From IMG/VR virus record IMGVR_UViG_3300042308_001786: a stretch of 20,000 nucleotides of DNA. One strand, given 5' to 3'. The notes beneath the pieces were generated by a model that saw only the letters and a list, made by a program, of their open reading frames with translations, made no database searches and was not told the DNA's origin. The stretch is from an uncultured virus (IMG/VR IMGVR_UViG_3300042308_001786) (Duplodnaviria; Heunggongvirae; Uroviricota; Caudoviricetes). A program made the position numbers and the translations under genes. Positions 6,292 through 20,000 of the stretch are shown here, in pieces (position 1 is the stretch's first letter; each line of letters begins with the position of its first letter).

Positions 6292-6855
6292 ATGTCCATG
6301 ATAGAAGAATGGCGCCCCATCGTTGGTTACGAGGGGCTTTACGAGGTGAGCAGCTTCGGTCGGGTCAGGAGCCTTGACCGAGCTTCGCGAGACAAGAATG
6401 GTCTACTCAAAAGGTTTAAAGGCAAAATCCTGTCTATTTGTATCAGAAAGAACAAGTATGGACAATACGCGATGGTTGGATTACCATTAAAGGATGGTAG
6501 TAAAAATAATACGCGATATGTAGCGCATTTAGTGCTCGAAGCTTTTGGCTGTCTCCGCCCCAGCGGAATGGAGTGTTGTCATTGTGACGGTAATTCGCTC
6601 AATAATCGAATTGATAATTTGCGCTGGGATACGCCCAAGGAAAATACAAAAGACAAATATAGGCACGGCACCGTTTTGTGGGGCTCAAAGAACCACCAAG
6701 CTCGGCTCACGGAGAAGCAAGTACTAGAAATACGAGCTAAATATATTCGCTACTCAAAAACTAAATCAAATAGCAGGCAGTTGGCAGATGAATACGGGGT
6801 TGACATACAGACTATAGGGAAAATTATTAGGCGAGAACGTTGGAAGCATATTTAA
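6292..6855 (+). CDS. NUMOD4-HNH homing endonuclease with C-terminal HTH
   Basis: EEWRPIVGYEGLYEVSSFGRVRS (NUMOD4); HLVLEAF...CCHCDGNSLNNRIDNLRWDTPKEN (HNH); RQLADEYGVDIQTIGKII (HTH). Confidence 0.9.
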   Translation: MSMIEEWRPIVGYEGLYEVSSFGRVRSLDRASRDKNGLLKRFKGKILSICIRKNKYGQYAMVGLPLKDGSKNNTRYVAHLVLEAFGCLRPSGMECCHCDGNSLNNRIDNLRWDTPKENTKDKYRHGTVLWGSKNHQARLTEKQVLEIRAKYIRYSKTKSNSRQLADEYGVDIQTIGKIIRRERWKHI

Positions 6856-7790
6856 CCTTCTTGGAAAACGCTAATAAAGACAGCTCCCTTGTCTGTTAGT
6901 GGCAAAATTTTATCGCGCAAATCAATATTACGAGCACGACAACAACCCATTGTTGGCATTAGTTTTTGATTTGGAGCCCACGCGCCTGGCCACCCAAGTG
7001 CACTAGATCCGCCATGAAGCATGATCCCTGCACGCCCATTATCCCTTTCTTGCCCCTCTAGATCAATCATGTCAAAACTGTACCAGCCATAAGCCATAAG
7101 CGTACGATCATAGGCAGGTTTGTCGCCTACTCTGTCATAATCTCGATAAATCGTGCCTAGCTTGTACAGACCTGGAGGACAATCACTGTTTTGGATGCGC
7201 CATTCAAAGTCACTATATTGCCCACGAGCAAGGCAAGGGATTTCCCACAATAGTTTTCCTTCATAGGAAAAAGCTTTCATGGTTTCCACTGCATCGTTCA
7301 CAACCAAATGCGAATCGCCAGGTTTAAAGCCAAAGTCTTGAGGACGCTTCTTGGGGCCAATCATAGTAAATTGCGTGGTTTCTGGGGCATATTCTTTCAT
7401 GAGTTTAGAAAGCTTTGCAGGATAATCGGGATCCGTTGCATAGCTTTGTTCCTTGAGCATGCGTGCTGCCGCATAGCGATTAGGCGCATTGTTCACGCCC
7501 TTAAATTGACGATAATCTTTGTACCAGCGGGTTACAAGATATTCAATGCAAGCAGCAAGGCTAGGGAAATCAATAAACCCTGCCTTAATTGTCACCCATT
7601 GACCGTCGTACCATTCTTGCGTGGTAGTAGTGGTGCCACTCCCCTTTAGGCCGAACGCATTCCATTGCCCAGAAAAATGCTTGCCAAAGCCACTCTCAAG
7701 CGCCCATTGGGCTGCCACTAGTTCAGGGAATCTGGCTCCGACTCTCTTGGCATGATCTTGAACTCCTTTCCATGTGTTGGGGATTTCCAT
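6852..7790 (-). CDS. Endolysin: GH73/FlgJ-like glucosaminidase plus C-terminal YkuD/L,D-transpeptidase-like domain
   Basis: AQWALESGFG, NAFGLKG and YATDPDY (GH73 motifs); GIMLHGG...PTMGCCR (His...GC motif of the YkuD family). Confidence 0.8.
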   Translation of the reverse strand: MEIPNTWKGVQDHAKRVGARFPELVAAQWALESGFGKHFSGQWNAFGLKGSGTTTTTQEWYDGQWVTIKAGFIDFPSLAACIEYLVTRWYKDYRQFKGVNNAPNRYAAARMLKEQSYATDPDYPAKLSKLMKEYAPETTQFTMIGPKKRPQDFGFKPGDSHLVVNDAVETMKAFSYEGKLLWEIPCLARGQYSDFEWRIQNSDCPPGLYKLGTIYRDYDRVGDKPAYDRTLMAYGWYSFDMIDLEGQERDNGRAGIMLHGGSSALGWPGAWAPNQKLMPTMGCCRARNIDLRDKILPLTDKGAVFISVFQEG

Positions 7791-7819
7791 GGCTAGATCC
7801 TCTATTCATAAAGTCTAGC

Positions 7820-7890
7820 TGTTATGATTTTTGTGGGTCCGCGTGATTGCAGTCACCGAACCCGTGGATCACTCGCCTAATCGAGCAACC
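7820..7890 (+). promoter_or_regulatory. Putative extended -10 promoter plus structured leader of NUMOD4-HNH gene 2
   Basis: TGtTATGAT (7820-7828); hairpin GGGTcCGcGTGA-TTGCAG-TCACCGaACCC (7835-7863); then CTCG-cctaat-CGAG. Confidence 0.55.
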
Positions 7891-8448
7891 ATGGACATTA
7901 TCGCAGAAGAATGGCGCCCAGTGCCAGGCGCTGAAGGTCGTTACGAAGTTAGCAATCTTGGGCGTGTCAAAAGCCTAAGACGAGTCGTCTCTTGTGGCAT
8001 CCGACAAGGGAAACGGGCCTATCGGACTGTGCCAGAGAAAATATTAAAACCTGGACTTGACAAAGACGGCTATGCGCAAGTCTTAATAGCACAAACTGAG
8101 GGTGATAAATTTAAAAACACTAGAATTCATCAACTAGTAGCATTGGTGTTTCTTGGGCCTAAGCCAAAGGACAAATGGGTTCTGCATGGTCCCAATGGAA
8201 AAGAAGACAATAGCGTTGGAAATTTATACTATGGAACTCCCGCTCAAAATATTAAAGACAAGTGGAGGGACGGCACTATCATTATTGGCGAAAAGCATCA
8301 CAAAGCCAAACTAAAAGAGGCTGATGTTATTGAAGTTCGCGAGCTGTACGAGCAAGGCTTAACGTGCAAAGAAATCGCGGCTCGCTATAGCGTAGGCGAT
8401 ACCGCGATTGCAAAAATCATCAACAGAGAAAACTGGAAATGGCTCTAG
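7891..8448 (+). CDS. NUMOD4-HNH homing endonuclease with C-terminal HTH (185 aa)
   Basis: Start moved to ATG 7891 by alignment with the paralogue (MDIIAEEWRPVPGAEGRYEVSNLGRVKS); HQLVALVF...VLHGPNGKEDNSVGNLYYGTPAQN; KEIAARYSVGDTAIAKII HTH. Confidence 0.9.
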   Translation: MDIIAEEWRPVPGAEGRYEVSNLGRVKSLRRVVSCGIRQGKRAYRTVPEKILKPGLDKDGYAQVLIAQTEGDKFKNTRIHQLVALVFLGPKPKDKWVLHGPNGKEDNSVGNLYYGTPAQNIKDKWRDGTIIIGEKHHKAKLKEADVIEVRELYEQGLTCKEIAARYSVGDTAIAKIINRENWKWL

Positions 8449-8452
8449 TCTT

Positions 8453-8596
8453 TCAGCCCTTCACACGGAAGACTGCCTTAAGGCCAGTCATGATCAATTG
8501 CAGGATGTTGTTTTCTTTATAAGGAGTGCGTTCGATAATTTGATCGGCAGCAGCAACAAGAATGCCACCAACCACAAACCATTCAATGCCGCCCAT
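8453..8596 (-). CDS. Putative holin-like small membrane protein (47 aa)
   Basis: Not in the ORF track. MGGIEWFVVGGILVAAADQIIERTPYKENNILQLIMTGLKAVFRVKG; GGAGG SD; hydrophobic N-terminus; same strand as the endolysin and upstream of it. Confidence 0.6.
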   Translation of the reverse strand: MGGIEWFVVGGILVAAADQIIERTPYKENNILQLIMTGLKAVFRVKG

Positions 8597-8625
8597 GATT
8601 TCCTCCCAGGAGGGTTTCTTAAAGC

Positions 8626-8835
8626 CTAGCGCTTAATTTCTAAACTACGCACTCTTGTTTCAATGTCACTCATCTTATCCGTTAAAGCACTAAGCTTTTC
8701 CGTAATGCTTTCAATTTGCACTGCCACTTTGGCTTGTTGATTGCCAACAGTGATAAGCATGGCCCCAGTGGAAAGAAGCATGCCAGCCGTGATAGTGGCC
8801 ACAAAATTGGCCATGCCTTCTTTAAAGGAGTCCAT
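8626..8835 (-). CDS. Single-TM plus coiled-coil protein (69 aa), possibly lysis-related
   Basis: MDSFKEGMANFVATITAGMLLSTGAMLITVG (TM) followed by a heptad region; ATG 8835 with AGGA upstream. Confidence 0.6.
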   Translation of the reverse strand: MDSFKEGMANFVATITAGMLLSTGAMLITVGNQQAKVAVQIESITEKLSALTDKMSDIETRVRSLEIKR

Positions 8836-8922
8836 GGAGATTTCCTGCAATTTTTATATTAGCGAACGCGCACTACTCTCTAAAGGCCCGTTAGATTATT
8901 TCCAGAAAAAGTAAATAGTGCC

Positions 8923-9405
8923 ATGCGAAGAGCGAATGGTCCCGATGAGCTGCTTTATTCTCTCATTGAACTTCGCCCTGGAGACGCAAGACGCAGATTT
9001 CGCAAGAGCATTTTTGAAGACTATCCGCTACGTGGTCCTCTTGGACAATGCGCCTGTGCATATTGCGGGCGATGGGATCAAAAGCTAACGATTGACCATA
9101 TTGTGCCTAAAAGCAAGGGTGGGCCTCATTTTGCAAAATATAATTTAGTGCCAAGTTGTCAAGCGTGTAATTTACTAAAAGGAGCTGAGCCTATTTTTGA
9201 ATGGTGGCGTCCACAGCGTTTCTGGACTGAGAAGCGAGAAGAGCTTCTTCTTGCATGGGTGCATCACAATAGCTTTGTTAGCGCCCACACTTCTTTGCAG
9301 GATATTGAAGCATTCGCAGAGGAGCGTGATTATTACATTCCACCGTCAAAAGAAGAAGCCCCCATTTCTGGGGGCTTTTGTTATACAGAATGGCAGGCAG
9401 CTTAG
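8923..9405 (+). CDS. Zn-finger HNH endonuclease (McrA/HNH_5-like)
   Basis: CAYCG...LTIDHIVPKSKGG...NLVPSCQACNLLKG. Confidence 0.88.
   Translation: MRRANGPDELLYSLIELRPGDARRRFRKSIFEDYPLRGPLGQCACAYCGRWDQKLTIDHIVPKSKGGPHFAKYNLVPSCQACNLLKGAEPIFEWWRPQRFWTEKREELLLAWVHHNSFVSAHTSLQDIEAFAEERDYYIPPSKEEAPISGGFCYTEWQAA
9346..9378 (-). terminator. Terminator for the - strand operon, embedded in the HNH 3' end (possibly bidirectional)
   Basis: Stem GAAGCCCCCA-tttc-TGGGGGCTTT at 9355-9378, with T-rich tails on both strands. Confidence 0.65.
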
Positions 9406-12322: not shown

Positions 12323-12344
12323 AGAAACAACGATGGAAAGAGCG

Positions 12345-12758
12345 CTATTTGACGCGCCCTGATTCGGAAATAGGCAGGGGGACAAGACCATCAGTGGGAA
12401 TGTACACGACAGTCTTTTCACCTTGCTTGCCCTCCTGATCTTGAAGCCCTGTGATATACAGATACTTCAAATACTCAGGATTACCTTTAAGGCTATCGCC
12501 AATGATTTTATTGGCTTTAGCCACGCCTTCGGCGCGTGCCACTTCAGCATCAGCCTCTAAAACTGCTGCTTCTTTTTTAGCTTTAGCCTCATACACCCTC
12601 ACTTGGCGAGTGGATTCAGCTCCCTGCAGCATTGCTTTGCCATTTTGCGTTTTGCTATAGATGTTGTATTGAGGCCCAATCCAGAAAAGACTAGCAAGGC
12701 CAAACAATGCGACAACTAAGACAAGAACAACTTCGGCTGAACCGTTGTCTTTCCGCAT
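12345..12758 (-). CDS. Membrane-anchored protein with SPFH/HflC-like coiled-coil C-terminus
   Basis: N-terminal TM; EAEVARAEGVAKANKIIGDSL.GNPEYLKYLYI...VVYIPT. Confidence 0.7.
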   Translation of the reverse strand: MRKDNGSAEVVLVLVVALFGLASLFWIGPQYNIYSKTQNGKAMLQGAESTRQVRVYEAKAKKEAAVLEADAEVARAEGVAKANKIIGDSLKGNPEYLKYLYITGLQDQEGKQGEKTVVYIPTDGLVPLPISESGRVK

Positions 12759-12767
12759 TGCTCAGGC

Positions 12768-13052
12768 TCAGAACAGATCGTCGTTAGACGAAGACGATGC
12801 GAAGCTGCTGCCTGCACTTTCGCCGTTCTGCCAGAAAGAAGAATAAGCCTTAGGGCTATTTTCCATCTTGTTGACAGTCACTTGCCCCTTGAAATGAGGA
12901 GCAGTGTCCTTATCACGCTTATCGTTGTTCCACAGTGCCACGCGGAAGCTGTAGTTTCCTTGTGCATTGGGACCAGCCTTTTTGGCTGCATTCAGAATGT
13001 CGGGGGTGAGATCGACAGTACCGCTGAAAACGGGGAGATTGCCAGAGGGCAT
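12768..13052 (-). CDS. Putative single-stranded DNA-binding protein (94 aa)
   Basis: Beta-rich with aromatics (ALWNN..DTAPHFKG); flexible tail ending in acidic-aromatic NDDLF; downstream of the exonuclease and Sak3 genes. Confidence 0.5.
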   Translation of the reverse strand: MPSGNLPVFSGTVDLTPDILNAAKKAGPNAQGNYSFRVALWNNDKRDKDTAPHFKGQVTVNKMENSPKAYSSFWQNGESAGSSFASSSSNDDLF

Positions 13053-13123
13053 GTAGTGTTCCTCAGAAGGAGAGTGGTCGGCCCTGGAGGGGCTCTAGAA
13101 GCATAGCTGGTGCAGACGAGGAG

Positions 13124-14155
13124 TCAAGCTCCGCGGTCCATAGAAATGGTTAAGGCATGGGAATAATATGATTACTCTTGCCAGCGTTGCACTCACGGCA
13201 TAGCACTTGCAGGTTTGCCGCATCGTTTGTGCCGCCTTTGGACACGGGGTGAATATGGTCAATCTCAAGGACTGCCCCATTCGACCTAGATGCGCCACAC
13301 ATTTGGCAAGTGTATTTGTCTCGGACCAGTATTGCCACGCGATCTTTGGGTTTAATCGCAGACCTTTTGATTGGATTATTTAAACGACGGGCATTTTTGT
13401 TGTATGCGATATGACTCAATAGTGCCCATGGTGGTCCCCACTCGCATTGTGTTGCCATTTGGGCTGCAAACCAAAAATCATTGCGTTTTGTCTGCTCCAT
13501 CCAAGCAAAGTCGTGCCCACTTTCTTTATGCTCTTCGTATTCATCCCTTGCGTCCTTCAAGCGATCATCAAAGACTATATAAATTGGGACGCCAAGTGCG
13601 TATGCATAGCCGATTTCAGCCAACGTTCCATAGCAATCTGGTGAATCTATAAATGCATACAATGCGTCACATGTACGAATTTGGTACATGCAACGCTCTA
13701 ACACCTGTGACCTTGAAAGTCCATTCTCGCCGTCAGGACAACTTGTCTCTTGCTGAATTGCGTATAAATATTCGCGGCCATGGACCGGCACATCGTGAAG
13801 CCTTTCCCTTGAAGAGCCAAATAATGTTTGATCTTGCGCAAAAGGATTGTTAATGCCATGATTGCTTTTATGCCAGCATCCATGGTCGCACGACAATGCG
13901 CTCGGTCCTCCATAGCGCACTGTTCCCAAATCATATAGATCTAGCGGATTATCGTAGACAGAATGCTCTGATCCTATCGCCCTAGACATAATGCGATCAT
14001 CCTGGAACAGACTTCTCCTGTAATCACTGCTTCCTTTGCGAACCTTTCCAGCAAAATAAACCAAGAGTGGCTCAAGCAAATTCCGCTGATTTGCGGAGTT
14101 AAAGGTGTGTTCAATGGCCACAATCAAGCTCCACGGTCCATGGAAATGGTTAAGG
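13124..14155. mobile_element. 1000-bp inserted cassette bounded by 32-bp direct repeats (13124-13155, 14124-14155)
   Basis: TCAAGCTCCrCGGTCCATrGAAATGGTTAAGG, 30/32 identical; the repeat is the 3' end of the exonuclease gene. Confidence 0.8.
13150..14127 (-). CDS. Nucleoside 2-deoxyribosyltransferase-like (NDT/RCL fold) domain fused to C-terminal Zn-HNH endonuclease
   Basis: VYFAGK; IRTCDALYAFIDSPDCYGTLAEIGYAYALGVPIYIV (NDT GTxxE motif); RDKYTCQMCG...LEIDHIHPVSKGGTNDAANLQVLCRECNAGKS. Start is TTG 14127 or GTG 14121. Confidence 0.8.
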   Translation of the reverse strand: MIVAIEHTFNSANQRNLLEPLLVYFAGKVRKGSSDYRRSLFQDDRIMSRAIGSEHSVYDNPLDLYDLGTVRYGGPSALSCDHGCWHKSNHGINNPFAQDQTLFGSSRERLHDVPVHGREYLYAIQQETSCPDGENGLSRSQVLERCMYQIRTCDALYAFIDSPDCYGTLAEIGYAYALGVPIYIVFDDRLKDARDEYEEHKESGHDFAWMEQTKRNDFWFAAQMATQCEWGPPWALLSHIAYNKNARRLNNPIKRSAIKPKDRVAILVRDKYTCQMCGASRSNGAVLEIDHIHPVSKGGTNDAANLQVLCRECNAGKSNHIIPMP

Positions 14156-14924
14156 GGCGTCCGCCTGGGTAGTACTCGAAAAAGTACTGTTGCGTCTTCT
14201 GAGCCATGATCCCTGCCTGCATGGCAAGATCGGTGCCGTCAAGGCTCACGATTTGAGCCTCCTGTCCTTTGCCCGTATCGGGATCGTAAATGGCGATAGC
14301 GCAATGCGCCTCGTTGATTTCGATGCCATACATCTGCTCAATGGCTTGGGAATAAGCTCCGAGCTGCATGCGATAGTCGCCTAACTGCGTATCAGGCTTT
14401 TGTTTGTAGCTTGTCTTCCAATCAAGCAGGGCGATATTGCCGTTGCCCATGGTCGCAAGCATGTCAAATGTGCCTGAGTAGCCAGTTTCAGTGGAGGGGC
14501 AATACCAAGCGATGGCACTTTCCACTAAGAGGGGGCTAGCCACGCCAGTGAGGAAGTTGGCAATGCTGTCGAAATAAGGAACGAACAATGGATGGGAATC
14601 AAGGTGACAGTTGATGTCCTCGCCGTTCCAGAAATCCTCTAGCACGCCATGAAGCCAATTACCACGTTCTACAGCAGAGCGTGTGCGACGATTAGCTTCC
14701 TCATCGCCTACTTTCTTGCGCCAGTTCATGAGCGCTGCAATCTTGCCAGGCGGCGAACACGCGCTCGCAATAGTCGTCACAGAGGGCAAAACAATGCCTT
14801 CTGGGGCATTTGGAAAACCGTTCAAAACGTAATTCCGCTTGCCGTTCAAGGAGATTCGGTTGGGTTCGTAGCGGGCGAGAGAAGGCATCGAAAGAGCGTC
14901 GAGACATAGATCGTAACAGGGCAC
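14124..14924 (-). CDS. PD-(D/E)XK exonuclease (lambda-exo/RecB/Cas4-like phage family)
   Basis: LPSVTTI, LMNWRKKVG, RGNWLH, VES, YSGTFDML, LLDWKTS, QLGAY; alternative start ATG 14888. Confidence 0.85.
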   Translation of the reverse strand: MPCYDLCLDALSMPSLARYEPNRISLNGKRNYVLNGFPNAPEGIVLPSVTTIASACSPPGKIAALMNWRKKVGDEEANRRTRSAVERGNWLHGVLEDFWNGEDINCHLDSHPLFVPYFDSIANFLTGVASPLLVESAIAWYCPSTETGYSGTFDMLATMGNGNIALLDWKTSYKQKPDTQLGDYRMQLGAYSQAIEQMYGIEINEAHCAIAIYDPDTGKGQEAQIVSLDGTDLAMQAGIMAQKTQQYFFEYYPGGRPLTISMDRGA

Positions 14925-15247
14925 TATTTCTCATTCATGTCCCAGAAATACTCGCAGCCTTCTTCCGTATAAGGCGGCGTTGCAAAATAACTTTGGAAGC
15001 GATCAGAGGGCGCCATGTAACGCCAGCAATCTTCCTTGACAGGGCATTTGTCGCCCGTACACATTGCAATATCAGGCATGAGAATAGTTCGTGCAGTTTG
15101 ATAAAGGAAAGTGCGATCAGCCAGAGGATGTTCAGCAATAGCGTGGAGAACAGCAGCAATACGACGGTCGCTGCTAAGCGTATCGTCAGGAAAGCTCCAG
15201 AATGCTTCATGGCAAGCATCAATCAGCGTCCGTCTGTTTGTCAACAT
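14924..15247 (-). CDS. Hypothetical protein with C-terminal 4-Cys module
   Basis: MPDIAMCTGDKCPVKEDCWRY...QSYF...CEYFW. Confidence 0.65.
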   Translation of the reverse strand: MLTNRRTLIDACHEAFWSFPDDTLSSDRRIAAVLHAIAEHPLADRTFLYQTARTILMPDIAMCTGDKCPVKEDCWRYMAPSDRFQSYFATPPYTEEGCEYFWDMNEK

Positions 15248-15621: not shown

Positions 15622-15671
15622 CCAGCAAAGGCCCGCGCAAAGCGGGCCGCTGCTAGATCTATGGCTTTTTT
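15622..15671 (-). promoter_or_regulatory. Candidate -1 programmed frameshift signal (A_AAA_AAG, 8-nt spacer, stem-loop)
   Basis: Minus strand GCA AAA AAG CCA TAG; hairpin CTAGCAGCGGCCCGC-TTTGC-GCGGGCCTTTGCTGG (15656-15622). Confidence 0.55.
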
Positions 15672-16621
15672 GCAACGAAAGCTTTCATTGCTTCAACCAT
15701 TGTTTCCGTTGTATCGCAGGCGCGAACAAGATCAATTTCCTTAGTCATCTCTGTTTTAGTAATAACCATTTGCTCTTCCTTTGCCCAGACAGTCATCATG
15801 GCTGCTGCCACATTGCCAAACTGCTGCCATGTTTTCACTTCAGTGGCGCGAGACAGGCCGATAGCTTCCAGCGCAGCCTTACCAAGAGCCATGCTGTTCT
15901 TCTCATCGGCATAACCAAATGGATTGGCTTTGCAAATGGTGGTCAGGGCAGTTTTGGCATCAAATGCTTCATCACTGGTCCCTGTCGCAGCGGTGGGAGC
16001 ATTCCCTCCTTCTCCAGCAGGCTCAGAAGGAGCTTTAGCTCCCGTTGGCGCCTTGCTTGCCCGCGTAGTTTGCTTCGGAGCTTCCTGTTGGAGCGGGAGT
16101 TTGGGCGTTCCTTTTTCATCTTCTTTAGGGATGTCTTCACCTGCATAGAGACGCAGGCCAAGACCAGTGAAAGTGGCAATAGCCTTTACAGCAGCACGCT
16201 GGCAGTTGTCAGAGATGGCACGACCATCAAGCTCCTTAATGGAATTATGCTTCCTGTCCATGATCGGGAAGATCAAGGCAACAGTACGGCGGCAGCCATC
16301 AGTGAGGTAGGGGCGGAGATAGTAAGCGCCTGGTGTGCCAAACACCACTTCCCCAACGGTCTTCTCTTCAAAGGCTACAAAATACGTAGGGAAATGCTCC
16401 TTCAAATAGCGATAGGCAAAGGGCCAGGACAGATAAGACAAGCCCTTGTAGTCCTTCTCGATGTGAGGCCCGATGTCAGGCGTATCGTAAGCAGCCTTGA
16501 AGGCTTCAGCGCTGATCTCCAGAGGAGAGAAGATGCCGTTGTAACGGTCCATTGCGGCTTGTTTGGCAGGGTCCATGGAAGAAAAATCAGACGGGGAATA
16601 GAGCATAAAAGAATGGTTCAC
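15659..16621 (-). CDS. Sak3-like / DUF1071 single-strand annealing protein (Rad52-like) with C-terminal extension
   Basis: IEKDYKGLSYLSWPFAY, FPIMDRKHNSI, ISDNCQRAAVKAIA..GLGLRLYAGEDIP; then a Pro/Ala linker and a helical domain. Confidence 0.85.
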   Translation of the reverse strand: MNHSFMLYSPSDFSSMDPAKQAAMDRYNGIFSPLEISAEAFKAAYDTPDIGPHIEKDYKGLSYLSWPFAYRYLKEHFPTYFVAFEEKTVGEVVFGTPGAYYLRPYLTDGCRRTVALIFPIMDRKHNSIKELDGRAISDNCQRAAVKAIATFTGLGLRLYAGEDIPKEDEKGTPKLPLQQEAPKQTTRASKAPTGAKAPSEPAGEGGNAPTAATGTSDEAFDAKTALTTICKANPFGYADEKNSMALGKAALEAIGLSRATEVKTWQQFGNVAAAMMTVWAKEEQMVITKTEMTKEIDLVRACDTTETMVEAMKAFVAKKP

Positions 16622-17419: not shown

Positions 17420-17587
17420 GGACGAGAGGCATCGGAAACATGGCCAGACTAGCCATAGTTTTTAGCCCTGCCAACCACGTTGAGCATTGCTGTTGCTTAT
17501 GCTTCTGCTCGTCTCGCATGGTTTTAGCTTATAAGTCTGTTGCTTCTTGATTTCCTTGCTACAACGGGGGCATTCCCACTCCTTTCC

Positions 17588-20000
17588 ATGGCATTCTCCA
17601 TCCTGGACCACATTGAGAAGCTTGAGACAAGCGATCATCCAGGGAAATACATCTGTCCAGCATGCGGAGGCAATGACCTCTCCATCAACACTAACAATGG
17701 TGCCTACAACTGTTTCAATGATGATTCAGCAAAGCACCGCGCCGAAATTCGTAACATCCTTGCTCCGCTTGATCGTTGGGAGCGCCCTCTTCGTGAACCA
17801 CAGTCTTACACTTTCCCCTACAAAAATAGGCAAGGCGAAACTACTATTAACGTGCATCGTGATGATGCAAGTGGCAAGAAAACAATTAAACAAAGCTACC
17901 CTTCAGTGCCGCAGGGCACGCATCAACGTAAAGCATACATTGATGAAATAAGAAGCACCATTCTTCCTTATCGCTTTGATGAGGCTCTTACTGCTTCACA
18001 GGTGACTGGACTTCCCATCTTCATTGTTGAAGGGGAACTCACATGTGACAGGCTATGGGAGATCGGGATTCCCTCGGTCACTTTCCTTGGTGGCAGCGGT
18101 CAGTATCGGGCCAACGGCGACTACTCCCTATTGTTTCGCGGCAAGAAGATTGTTCTATGCCCTGATCGTGATGAGCCTGGCATTGCTCTCATGCGAGAAG
18201 TGGCTTCAGATAATCCTGGGGCGCAATGGCTTTATGCCGATCCTGGCAATTTTGAATGGGACAGCCTTCCGCAAAATGGAGGCTACGACTTAGCTGACTG
18301 GCTTGATGATGGCGCAGACCAAGAACTCATCCTTTCCTCCATTGTTTCAAAGGATCGCCATGAAGGCAAAGATGGGCTTCCTTCCTATGAGGAAATCATT
18401 GGCACCTTTGAGCGCATGGTCGGGCTATTTGACAATGATGCTCGCGTGGCGTTTGAAGCTTCTAAATGGCTAGAAGCTCATGGCGTGAAGATGGCGCAAG
18501 CAAATATTGACAAGATGATTGACGAGGCGCGTTCTCGCTTGTTTGGCAAGGAGGAAATAGAAACTATTGACGTGCTGCAATTAATTGATGATGATTCCGT
18601 TCGTGAATGGCTGATTGCTGGCATTGTTCCGCTTGGTAGCGTCACTCTCCTTGCTGCGCAGGGCGGCACTGGTAAAGCTCAGAGCCTGGACAGCAAGATT
18701 CTCACCCCCGATGGCTGGACAACCATGGGAGAGCTTCACGTGGGCAGTAAGGTCATTGCAATGGATGGAACGGTGGCGAAGGTCACGGGAGTCTTTCCAC
18801 AGGGCGTCAAGCCTCTTTATCGGGTCACTATGAGCGATGGCAGTTCTACCATTTGCTGCGACGAGCATCTGTGGCTCACAAAAACCGAGAACGAGCGCAA
18901 TCTTAAACGCTCATGGAATATCAGGTCTCTTTCGGAAATTCGCTCTTCAATTCGTCGCGGTAATTCCGATAAGCGGAATCACTCAATTCCCATGGTTGGT
19001 CCTGTTCAATTTGAGAAAAAGGATCTTCCCATTCACCCCTATTTACTTGGCGTGATTCTTGGTGACGGAAATATTTCCAGCAATTCTTGCTCTGTAACTC
19101 TTTCGGATGATGAAATTGTTTATCGCATTCAAAAACTGCTTCCTCGTTATCACGATTTGAAGGTTCAAGAGAAAGCGAAAAAATGCACTACTTATGCGAT
19201 TCGCCAAAACTGCTCGACTACTATCTCGCCTGGTATTCGCGATATGTTGCGCGAAATGGGTTTGTGGGGCAAGCGCTCTTGGGAAAAGCACGTTCCACAA
19301 GAGTATCTTTTTTCCTCCGTTCAAGATCGCATGGACCTGTTACATGGCTTGATGGATACTGATGGAACCACAGGCGGCAGCCATACAACATTCGATTCTG
19401 CATCTAAAGACTTGGCGGAAGCTGTTCAATTCTTGGTTCTTTCCATTGGCGGCAAGGCAAGGCTCACTCAACGCCGCACTTTCTTCACTTATCTAGGACA
19501 GAAGAAACAAGGACGGATTAGTTATCGTGTTTTCATCTCAATGCCTTCTGGTTTTAAAAGCTTTAGTATTTCAGCCAAGGCAAGCAAGGAAACGCCGCGC
19601 ACCAAGTATTTACCCTCTCGCTTAATTGAATCAGTTGAATACATCGGAGATGGAGAAGCACAGTGCATCATGATTGACCATCCTTCGCATGCTTATGTAA
19701 CTGACGATTTTATTGTTACGCACAACACCAGCCTGGTCTACAACTGGGCTCTTGGCGTGGCCACTGGCTCTTCATGGTCTGGGCGGCGTTGCTTGCCTGG
19801 CAAATGCCTGCTCATCTCTGCTGACGAACCATTGTCAGACACCAAAGAAAAGCTTTCCATCATCGGCTATCAAGAAGCCAACATTCAGCCTGGCATGATT
19901 TCTTTCTGGGAAACCTGGCGCTTTGCTCACATGCAACAACTAGAACGCTTCATTAAAAAGCATCGCCCAGTGTTTGTCGTGATTGATTCGCTCACTGCAT
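17588..20000 (+). CDS. DNA primase-helicase (Zn-binding + TOPRIM + RecA-like/AAA_25 helicase), intein-containing, 3' truncated
   Basis: Absent from the ORF track because no stop lies in the window. Manual translation: MAFSILDH...ICPACGG...YNCF; IFIVEGE; LCPDRDEPG; EWLIAGIVP; Walker A AAQGGTGK|T; Walker B FVVIDSL. Confidence 0.9.
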   Translation, partial: MAFSILDHIEKLETSDHPGKYICPACGGNDLSINTNNGAYNCFNDDSAKHRAEIRNILAPLDRWERPLREPQSYTFPYKNRQGETTINVHRDDASGKKTIKQSYPSVPQGTHQRKAYIDEIRSTILPYRFDEALTASQVTGLPIFIVEGELTCDRLWEIGIPSVTFLGGSGQYRANGDYSLLFRGKKIVLCPDRDEPGIALMREVASDNPGAQWLYADPGNFEWDSLPQNGGYDLADWLDDGADQELILSSIVSKDRHEGKDGLPSYEEIIGTFERMVGLFDNDARVAFEASKWLEAHGVKMAQANIDKMIDEARSRLFGKEEIETIDVLQLIDDDSVREWLIAGIVPLGSVTLLAAQGGTGKAQSLDSKILTPDGWTTMGELHVGSKVIAMDGTVAKVTGVFPQGVKPLYRVTMSDGSSTICCDEHLWLTKTENERNLKRSWNIRSLSEIRSSIRRGNSDKRNHSIPMVGPVQFEKKDLPIHPYLLGVILGDGNISSNSCSVTLSDDEIVYRIQKLLPRYHDLKVQEKAKKCTTYAIRQNCSTTISPGIRDMLREMGLWGKRSWEKHVPQEYLFSSVQDRMDLLHGLMDTDGTTGGSHTTFDSASKDLAEAVQFLVLSIGGKARLTQRRTFFTYLGQKKQGRISYRVFISMPSGFKSFSISAKASKETPRTKYLPSRLIESVEYIGDGEAQCIMIDHPSHAYVTDDFIVTHNTSLVYNWALGVATGSSWSGRRCLPGKCLLISADEPLSDTKEKLSIIGYQEANIQPGMISFWETWRFAHMQQLERFIKKHRPVFVVIDSLTA
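18677..19726 (+). mobile_element. Class 3 intein (350 aa) with LAGLIDADG homing endonuclease
   Basis: Begins AQSLDSKILTPDGW directly after GK; block B CCDEHLW; LLGVILGDG and LLHGLMDTDG; block F EAQCIMID; ends IVTHN followed by Thr+1. Confidence 0.92.

Follow-up and report, generated by a model that had tools for sequence, protein, structure and literature searches.

Why would a phage fuse an enzyme-type domain to an HNH nuclease, and what might each half do? We addressed this question for a gene in a 20,000-nucleotide (nt) stretch of DNA from an uncultured member of the Caudoviricetes (IMG/VR record IMGVR_UViG_3300042308_001786; this whole stretch is called the window below). The gene encodes an N-terminal domain resembling nucleoside deoxyribosyltransferases (NDT) followed by a C-terminal HNH domain. 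The window belongs to a siphovirus related to Synechococcus phage S-CBS4, with 81% DNA identity in the endolysin region and 67% identity over the full length of the Sak-like annealing protein. The reading we favour, at a probability of about 0.45, is that the gene forms a mobile HNH cassette of the homing type, with an NDT-like domain that is active as an N-glycosidase on DNA or close to it. Phage genomes are shaped by mobile endonuclease genes, whose usual content is taken to be a nuclease plus a small DNA-binding part and nothing else; this cassette also carries a conserved enzyme-type domain from a family that cuts the base-sugar bond. We rate the mobile HNH cassette as a known kind of element and its enzyme-type NDT-like partner as unprecedented.

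A two-domain fusion gene

The gene and its two domains are placed as follows.

13150..14121, minus strand: NDT-like/HNH fusion gene, 323 amino acids (aa) from GTG at 14121; alternative start TTG at 14127, giving 325 aa
13423..14070, minus strand: NDT-fold domain, residues ~20-235 (Pfam, AlphaFold2 (AF2) model, VIA-align and family profile)
13171..13308, minus strand: HNH nuclease domain, residues 274-319 (Pfam and profile match)

The open frame spans 13150..14127 on the minus strand, 325 codons counted from TTG, and an earlier note on this DNA had taken its full extent as the gene. The gene is real, and its start is likely the GTG at 14121, two residues further in, since an identical protein in our collection (P0001, 100%) is 323 aa long and the N-termini of relatives read MAIEH or MSIEH. 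A GGAG lies 8 nt upstream of this GTG, inside the last codons of the upstream exonuclease gene. Pfam indicated two domains in the protein, of NDT-type and HNH-type families only, and all of the motifs that had been quoted for it are present: YFAG at residues 24-27, CDALYAFID at residues 153-161, the Glu-bearing GTLAEIGYAYALGVPI at residues 167-182, which contains Glu171, and the HNH pattern. A structure model of the whole protein had a predicted local distance difference test score (pLDDT) of 70.8.

The nuclease domain, which had been described as intact-looking, is indeed intact. PF01844 matched residues 274-319 over profile positions 1-46 of 47 (E 8.2e-13), HNH_5 matched at E 1.1e-11, and an HNH profile match to the GVE2 phage HNH structure 5h0m was found at E 3.5e-7. 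The motif reads C274xxC277 ... D290-H291 ... N305 ... C310xxC313-N314, and all eight of these residues were invariant in 20 of 20 sequences; we take them to be the catalytic D-H, the structural N, the metal-binding N/H and two CxxC zinc pairs.

Full-length relatives at 37-72% identity form about 29 clusters, in which both domains are retained. Among 20 aligned full-length members, the N-terminal residues YFAGKV (Y24-V29), H86, H90, D161, D164 and E171 were invariant, and the identities of the two domains co-varied (r = 0.78 across 190 pairs, which are non-independent because they come from 20 sequences), with means of 54% for the N-terminal domain and 74% for HNH. Given the invariant catalytic residues and the co-varying domain identities, the alignment clearly points to an old fusion with both halves under purifying selection. 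Among GenBank phages, the full protein hit 256 records by tblastn, all of them through its HNH part alone and none covering at least 80% of the query, and tblastn with the N-terminal domain returned nothing at E <=0.001 from 50,697 GenBank phage records.

A 1,000-bp insertion flanked by a 32-nt repeat

The fusion gene lies between genes for a recombination exonuclease and a small protein resembling single-stranded DNA-binding proteins (SSB), in the following arrangement.

14124..14924, minus strand: PD-(D/E)XK recombination exonuclease, upstream neighbour (phrog_298, E 6.6e-43; PF12705, E 9.5e-7)
14124..14155, minus strand: direct repeat copy A, comprising the final 9 codons and stop of the exonuclease gene (LTISMDRGA*)
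13124..14123, equivalently 13156-14155, minus strand: 1,000-bp cassette (blastn against empty-site relatives)
13124..13155, minus strand: direct repeat copy B, 30/32 identical to copy A, overlapping the fusion stop codon and extending 26 nt past it
13100..13127, minus strand: promoter-like site TTGACT-16-TATGCT, its -35 hexamer supplied by the end of copy B (consensus scan)
12768..13052, minus strand: small SSB-like gene, downstream neighbour and counterpart of S-CBS4 gp074 (phrog_18154, a weak match at E 0.0014)

Alignment of the gene ends with those of S-CBS4 revealed the repeat, whose two copies start exactly 1000 nt apart. S-CBS4 has a single copy, with its exonuclease and gp074 genes adjacent, and thus represents the empty site. 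Blastn showed that relatives 91-98% identical in the flanks are without exactly these 1,000 bp: the flank alignments stop at 14124 and resume at 13155, with one 32-nt segment of the relative shared by both. Four further contigs have this repeat on either side of the fusion gene, namely L003 (spacing 1000), L004 (991), L116 (991) and L115 (994, cut by the contig end).

Flanking repeats were scored by comparing the two ends of an open reading frame (ORF) without gaps and taking the best match, with all ORFs of at least 100 aa in the window and 78 viral loci as the control set. Three fusion genes scored 26, 21 and 21. The 833 control ORFs had a median of 7 and a 99th percentile of 13, and three of them reached 18 or more. 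Two broader accounts of the repeat were rejected on the same score: it is not a general trait of this HNH clade (65 of 69 ORFs score <=10), nor of NDT-like genes (25 of 26 score <=11, and one scores 15).

Insertion would have produced a second copy of the final 32 nt of the exonuclease gene, so that the exonuclease keeps its C-terminus through copy A, and the SSB-like gene may keep its upstream signals through copy B and the spacer. The promoter-like site there has 9 of 12 consensus matches, and such sites are no commoner in the region than in shuffles; a spacer motif in the promoter-like region, GCTATGCT, is conserved across most loci. These sequences suggest a promoter that would explain how the duplication leaves both neighbours intact.

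Empty sites and mobility of the cassette

To place the insertion among relatives, an exonuclease protein search was used, which confirmed 122 loci; our figures rest on the best 80 of the 122, all viral and 76.5-98.9% identical. In 79 of these 80, the SSB-like gene follows the exonuclease after 71-126 nt (most often 74 nt), with no fusion gene present, whereas the one occupied locus, on the contig of L003, has a gap of 1074 nt. With a 1,000-bp indel, flanking 32-nt repeats and 79 of 80 close relatives empty, the description of the gene as mobile is borne out. Because the empty sites hold no NDT-like gene, the fusion as a whole is the mobile unit, rather than a nuclease that landed beside a resident NDT gene.

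The occupied copies do not share one background. The spacer allele that follows the repeat in the window is the commonest, found in a group of 14, and all 12 of the members named in our list are empty-site loci. A separate spacer allele is found at each of the occupied loci L231, L004, L115 and L116, in every case like that of other empty loci, and occupied copies were found in at least four different flanking backgrounds. In each of the four phages compared copy B reads LTISMDRGA*, and in L115 it reads LIISMDRGA*; it differs at 2-5 codons per phage pair with zero non-synonymous changes, and synonymous variety of this kind is also seen among the exonuclease 3' ends of empty sites. The simplest account of these alleles would be that copy B is the resident exonuclease end, captured in each lineage. 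On that account the cassette would have entered, or recombined with, several exonuclease backgrounds. The C-terminus of the real exonuclease varies (T or M), while the copy B peptide differs only synonymously. Translation of copy B through a -1 frameshift, adding LTISMDRGA to the fusion protein, was also considered and is unlikely: no slippery heptamer was seen by eye, and allele capture explains the pattern.

Phages carry free-standing HNH homing endonuclease genes, for example of the I-HmuI and T4 mob types. Like them, the cassette is a small HNH gene between conserved genes, whose presence at one site varies among near-identical genomes and which is found in several flanking backgrounds; a nuclease gene insertion that is polymorphic at one site among close relatives is what marks a homing gene. 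Unlike them, the insertion carries a 32-nt target duplication, and its N-terminal 250 residues form an NDT-fold enzyme-type domain with a conserved active site, where homing genes usually have small DNA-binding modules. The earlier note had set the protein apart from plain homing endonucleases, a distinction that the data do not favour: presence or absence at one site in several backgrounds is a homing-type or recombination-shuffled pattern.

On the reading we favour, a 1-kb cassette of the homing-endonuclease type, with the fusion gene as its only content, would have entered S-CBS4-like cyanosiphoviruses between their recombination exonuclease and SSB-like genes. We infer that in co-infection the HNH domain cuts or nicks cassette-free genomes near the exonuclease/SSB-like junction. 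The cassette would then be copied in as the phage's own Sak/exonuclease machinery repairs the damage, and recombination between the two repeats could remove it again. The locus provides a natural pair of occupied and empty alleles for homing tests in a culturable Synechococcus phage system (S-CBS4, host CB0101).

A divergent NDT-like domain with a Cys/His motif

Three features of the N-terminal domain are referred to below.

13615..13617, minus strand: codon of Glu171, the predicted nucleophile (Glu in 94 of 94 subfamily sequences)
13858..13890, minus strand: subfamily hallmark C80-D81-H82-G-C84-x-H86-x3-H90 (94-member alignment)
13744..13842, minus strand: lineage-specific insert, residues 96-128 (gaps in most relatives, low pLDDT)

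The fold assignment that had been proposed for this domain stands; the NDT fold is flavodoxin-like. PF05014 (Nuc_deoxyrib_tr) matched residues 102-191 at E 6.7e-9 with 36.3 bits, above the cut-off of 28.8. An AF2 model of residues 3-250, built on a 94-member alignment, had a pLDDT of 74.9 and was compared by VIA-align with 48,161 solved chains; ranks 1-10 were all structures of the NDT superfamily, with Z from 13.3 to 10.2. The best was 7m5h (Z 13.3, root-mean-square deviation 4.2, 149 residues aligned), followed by the rows given as 7o62, Desulfotalea NDT and YtoQ, at Z 12.5, and then by Leishmania NDT (12.2), Chroococcidiopsis NDT (11.8), MilB (11.4), the purine transferase 1s2d (11.1), 1f8x (10.4) and RCL (10.2). 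Generic GTPase folds ranked below these (Z <= 9.9), and Foldseek gave weak rows only (E ~0.007 and above). The family profile matched BcmB (E 2.2e-7), then Trypanosoma brucei NDT (TbNDT), MilB and DNPH1.

The domain shares with NDT, DNPH1/RCL, MilB, BcmB, BlsM and YtoQ the fold, a PF05014 match above cut-off and, after the fourth strand, a GTxxE(I/L)G(Y/W)A motif. In profile alignments the family version, GTxxEIGYA, which holds Glu171, aligned with GTxxEIGWA of BcmB and MilB, and we take the Glu at this position to be the nucleophile of NDT, MilB and DNPH1. The second active-site residue differs. An Asp on the helix preceding the nucleophile is presumably the general acid of NDT and DNPH1, and it was not found here: where BcmB (KLDYDAI) and MilB (RLDHDEI) have the Asp, the family has Cys146 (Cys in 81 of 94 sequences, Asn in 8 and Ser in 4). 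Because Cys146 replaces this Asp, chemistry identical to that of NDT or DNPH1 is not to be assumed. The alignments thus identify the domain as a divergent NDT-superfamily member in which the predicted nucleophile is retained and the acid Asp replaced. Work on Glu98 of NDT is cited in the accessible text of PMC3710099.

Unlike the enzymes of the NDT superfamily, the fusion family also has an extra GPxxxSCDHGCxHxxxHG segment with a fourth conserved Cys, a nearly invariant K28 and R37, and a fused nuclease. The earlier note had singled out a His/Cys-rich insert; the motif is there (CDHGCWHKSNHG, residues 80-91), but it is a hallmark of the whole NDT-like subfamily and no insert. The true insert is residues 96-128, absent in ~85-93 of 94 relatives and modelled at pLDDT < 50. 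Counts out of 94 for the hallmark were 83 (C80), 89 (D81), 91 (H82), 86 (C84), 91 (H86) and 92 (H90), and its partner cysteines were found in 84 (C130) and 81 (C146). Other signature positions were comparably conserved: Y24 91, A26 90, G27 92, K28 88, R37 93, G74 94, P75 93, D154 83, G167 93, T168 92, W219 90 and F220 85, with W or Y at position 36 in 89. From this conservation, the four Cys and three His (and an Asp) probably form one or two metal sites.

These relationships bring in a serious rival to a DNA-acting domain, a passenger enzyme of the nucleotide pool, which on balance we consider somewhat unlikely. The HNH domain would move or maintain the cassette, and the NDT-like domain would be a free-nucleotide enzyme, either a deoxynucleoside monophosphate (dNMP) N-hydrolase or a base-exchanging deoxyribosyltransferase, by which, to the advantage of the phage, the deoxynucleotide pool is reshaped or cleaned while host DNA is recycled. 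The nearest solved profile relatives are indeed nucleotide N-glycosidases and NDTs (BcmB, TbNDT, MilB and DNPH1, as above), and the gene block also encodes a dCTP deaminase, ThyX and a nucleotide kinase; the Asp of BcmB and MilB, however, is Cys in the fusion family. The accessible text of a 2025 preprint (bioRxiv 10.1101/2025.10.22.683976) puts forward, as a proposal, that phage NDTs deplete deoxyadenosine (dA) in diaminopurine phages, but PurZ was not found in the complete 73-kb relative of the window's phage (G002).

Relatives of the domain beside nucleases and replication genes

The genomic company kept by the wider subfamily bears on the same rival. A search with residues 3-250 among 1.84 billion representatives gave 1,185 matches at E <=0.001 and 175 at E <=1e-10, most of them 170-270 aa long. 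We ran a Pfam scan on the 49 proteins of at least 250 aa among the 145 that were new of 150 listed, together with P0067; the 96 shorter ones were left out. Of these 50, six carry HNH (two of them N-terminally), five carry MUG113/T5orf172 of the GIY-YIG clan (also two N-terminally) and two carry the Vsr-like DUF559/MTES_1575; the other 37 had no further domain at E <=0.001, save one weak zinc-finger match.

Viral loci were fetched with the N-terminal domain alone, giving 26 after the near-duplicates L209, L217 and L223 were left out. Six encode HNH-NDT fusions, all directly after an AAA_24 gene, which we take to be of the Sak4-type recombinase family. Three encode NDT-DUF559 fusions beside DnaB-type helicases, and one encodes a fusion to an AlpA-type helix-turn-helix (HTH). 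A helicase, primase, SSB, recombinase or nuclease gene lies within two genes in 20 of the 26, and a nucleotide-metabolism gene within two genes in none of the 26. These neighbourhoods speak against a pool enzyme, and one would not expect such an enzyme to have been joined, repeatedly and independently, to three nuclease folds and an HTH.

The six HNH-NDT fusions (L197, L201, L202, L204, L205 and L215) have the HNH at the N-terminus and the NDT-like domain at the C-terminus of a protein of ~260 aa encoded directly after the AAA_24 ATPase gene. This is a second, independent architecture. An ERCC4-type nuclease is encoded two genes downstream of the fusion in L205.

The subfamily is large and without any characterised member. 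The N-terminal domain gave only unnamed or weakly NDT-labelled clusters in the ESM Atlas, and the partial texts returned by our literature search held no account of an NDT-HNH fusion or of a Cys/His-bearing subfamily. One stand-alone member without the CDHGC motif, P0060 (L031/L196), is encoded on the chromosome of Capsulimonas corticalis in a region classed as viral in IMG/VR, and its gene directly precedes that of a 911-aa protein that is primase-helicase-like by eye.

Modified bases and host signals as possible targets

The earlier note had proposed that the protein senses modified nucleotides or acts against competitors, and it had suggested a survey for defence islands. The NDT-like domain would then flip out and recognise, or excise, a modified base and license the HNH to cut the DNA of a co-infecting phage or of the host, which seems to us quite unlikely. 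Reader-HNH Type IV restriction enzymes include McrA-like, SRA-HNH and EVE-HNH proteins. The fusion resembles them in having an N-terminal nucleotide-pocket domain and then a C-terminal, McrA-like CxxC...CxxC HNH, and PADLOC gave weak HNH-only matches of the fusion to REase_II, ZorE and PtuB. Comparative genomics has also led to the proposal, in the accessible text of PMC3710099, that NDT domains of conflict systems attack DNA bases. Unlike the Type IV enzymes, however, the fusion has an N-terminal domain that is not a known reader fold and keeps its nucleophile. Pfam showed no known modified-base reader domain in it, and no PADLOC model matched it at E <=0.01. Because the nucleophile Glu is invariant, catalysis is favoured over mere sensing.

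Neither the surroundings of the gene nor those of its bacterial relatives lend themselves to such a role. The fusion gene belongs to a recombination module of the phage rather than to a defence island. In G002, which is complete with direct terminal repeats and has the same gene order as the window, PHROG annotation of 54 ORFs revealed no recognisable DNA-modification genes; one moron-class glycosyltransferase was seen. A search of 185,579 species genomes with two exact peptide patterns gave 23 loci, and the six that we inspected lie beside integrase, VapE-like, AAA_25, excisionase-type HTH, MazE, CoiA-nuclease or unrelated metabolism genes. There was no conserved partner and no defence island among these six, whose contexts are mobile-element-like.

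A further rival, which we consider very improbable, holds that the NDT-like domain hydrolyses NAD(P)+ or a signalling nucleotide, destroying a host immune signal or taking over host metabolism, with the HNH domain as an independent module. It draws on the effectors of type II retrons (Eco1/Sen2), which act in phage-host conflict and likewise join an NDT-like catalytic domain to a nucleic-acid-binding part, described as a DNA-binding domain in the accessible text of PMC7736814; the retron-Eco1 effector hydrolyses NAD(P)+ according to the accessible text of PMC12673091. Unlike these effectors, the fusion is phage-encoded, has a nuclease as its partner and comes with no reverse transcriptase or multicopy single-stranded DNA partner, no reverse transcriptase being present among the annotated neighbours and window ORFs scanned. 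PADLOC gave no match to retron effectors. Moreover, NAD+ depletion would hurt the phage, and the nuclease fusions would be left without explanation.

A candidate DNA-acting glycosidase

We infer that the NDT-like domain acts on a deoxynucleotide in DNA or at its end, not on the free nucleotide pool, because its relatives are fused to three nuclease folds and an HTH, because they lie in replication and recombination neighbourhoods, and because the predicted nucleophile is invariant. It is possible, if rather doubtful, that the domain is a DNA-directed N-glycosidase working in tandem with the fused nuclease. The HNH domain would nick the target, and the NDT-like domain, with a pocket built for a deoxynucleotide with a free 3'-OH, would then strip the base from a 3'-terminal or flipped-out nucleotide. 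The break could then no longer be ligated or extended and would have to be repaired by recombination. Such a two-step action would explain the repeated fusions to three unrelated nuclease folds, the recombinase neighbours and the carriage by a mobile cassette. If true, it would be a new activity for the NDT fold and would establish both a new class of mobile enzymes that damage DNA in two steps and a metal-bearing branch new to the NDT superfamily. More generally, the identity of the substrate could reveal new DNA-directed glycosidase chemistry, or at least a new metal-bearing nucleotide hydrolase.

Several points weigh against a homing-type cassette with a DNA-acting glycosidase. The cassette is rare, found in 1 of 80 related viral contigs, and an efficient homing element might be commoner. 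Flanking repeats score <=10 at 65 of 69 HNH ORFs of the same HNH clade. Within the fusion family, L117 and L118 (53% identical) share the synteny without a flanking repeat and L119 lies in another context, from which it follows that the repeat is confined to one clade of the family. The cassette may instead be shuffled through the phage's own recombination at short repeats, a process that needs no HNH activity. To our knowledge, all NDT-fold enzymes of known activity act on free nucleosides, nucleotides or NAD(P)+, and none on DNA. The genes for dCTP deaminase, ThyX and nucleotide kinase lie 1-4 kb from the fusion gene, which fits a pool enzyme. Finally, two family members, P0027 and P0029, have lost the Cys/His motif, so this motif is not essential in every lineage.

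Neighbouring genes and other features of the window

The minus-strand block that contains the fusion gene begins with a recombination gene.

15659-16621, minus strand: Sak-like single-strand annealing protein, first in the block and followed by two small genes

After the SSB-like gene, the order on the minus strand is a 137-aa gene, dCTP deaminase, a phrog_503 gene, ThyX and nucleotide kinase. The 137-aa gene (12345-12758) matches phrog_11227 ('protease', E 5.6e-43) and also phrog_200 ('lipoprotein'). It is a second small indel of the module (12339-12763), present in 8 of 80 related viral loci and not in S-CBS4, G002 or G003. Two kinds of DNA modification were considered for this phage and rejected. 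A diaminopurine (dZ) phage was rejected on PurZ-type adenylosuccinate synthetase, found in neither of two relatives (the complete 73-kb G002, and G003). A hydroxymethyl-dU or other hypermodification pathway was rejected on the neighbour labelled 'thymidylate synthase', which is an ordinary ThyX (TIGR02170, E 1.9e-36).

Upstream of the exonuclease, 14925-15150 is another mosaic junction in the recombination module: L226-L229 have ~230-470 extra bases between the exonuclease and the Sak-side genes, and the window has a different short segment. Elsewhere, three further HNH genes surround the endolysin within 3 kb, at 6292-6855, 7831-8448 and 8923-9405, all on the plus strand. The first two are paralogues, both matching best to phrog_1492 and phrog_59, and the region 6292-9405 is dense in mobile-type nuclease genes. 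A long plus-strand ORF at 17540-19999, open at the window end, matches primase/helicase, DnaC-like loader and also 'terminase large subunit' PHROGs; its product is probably a replicative ATPase of the RecA family that resembles S-CBS4 gp082 and carries a long N-terminal extension.

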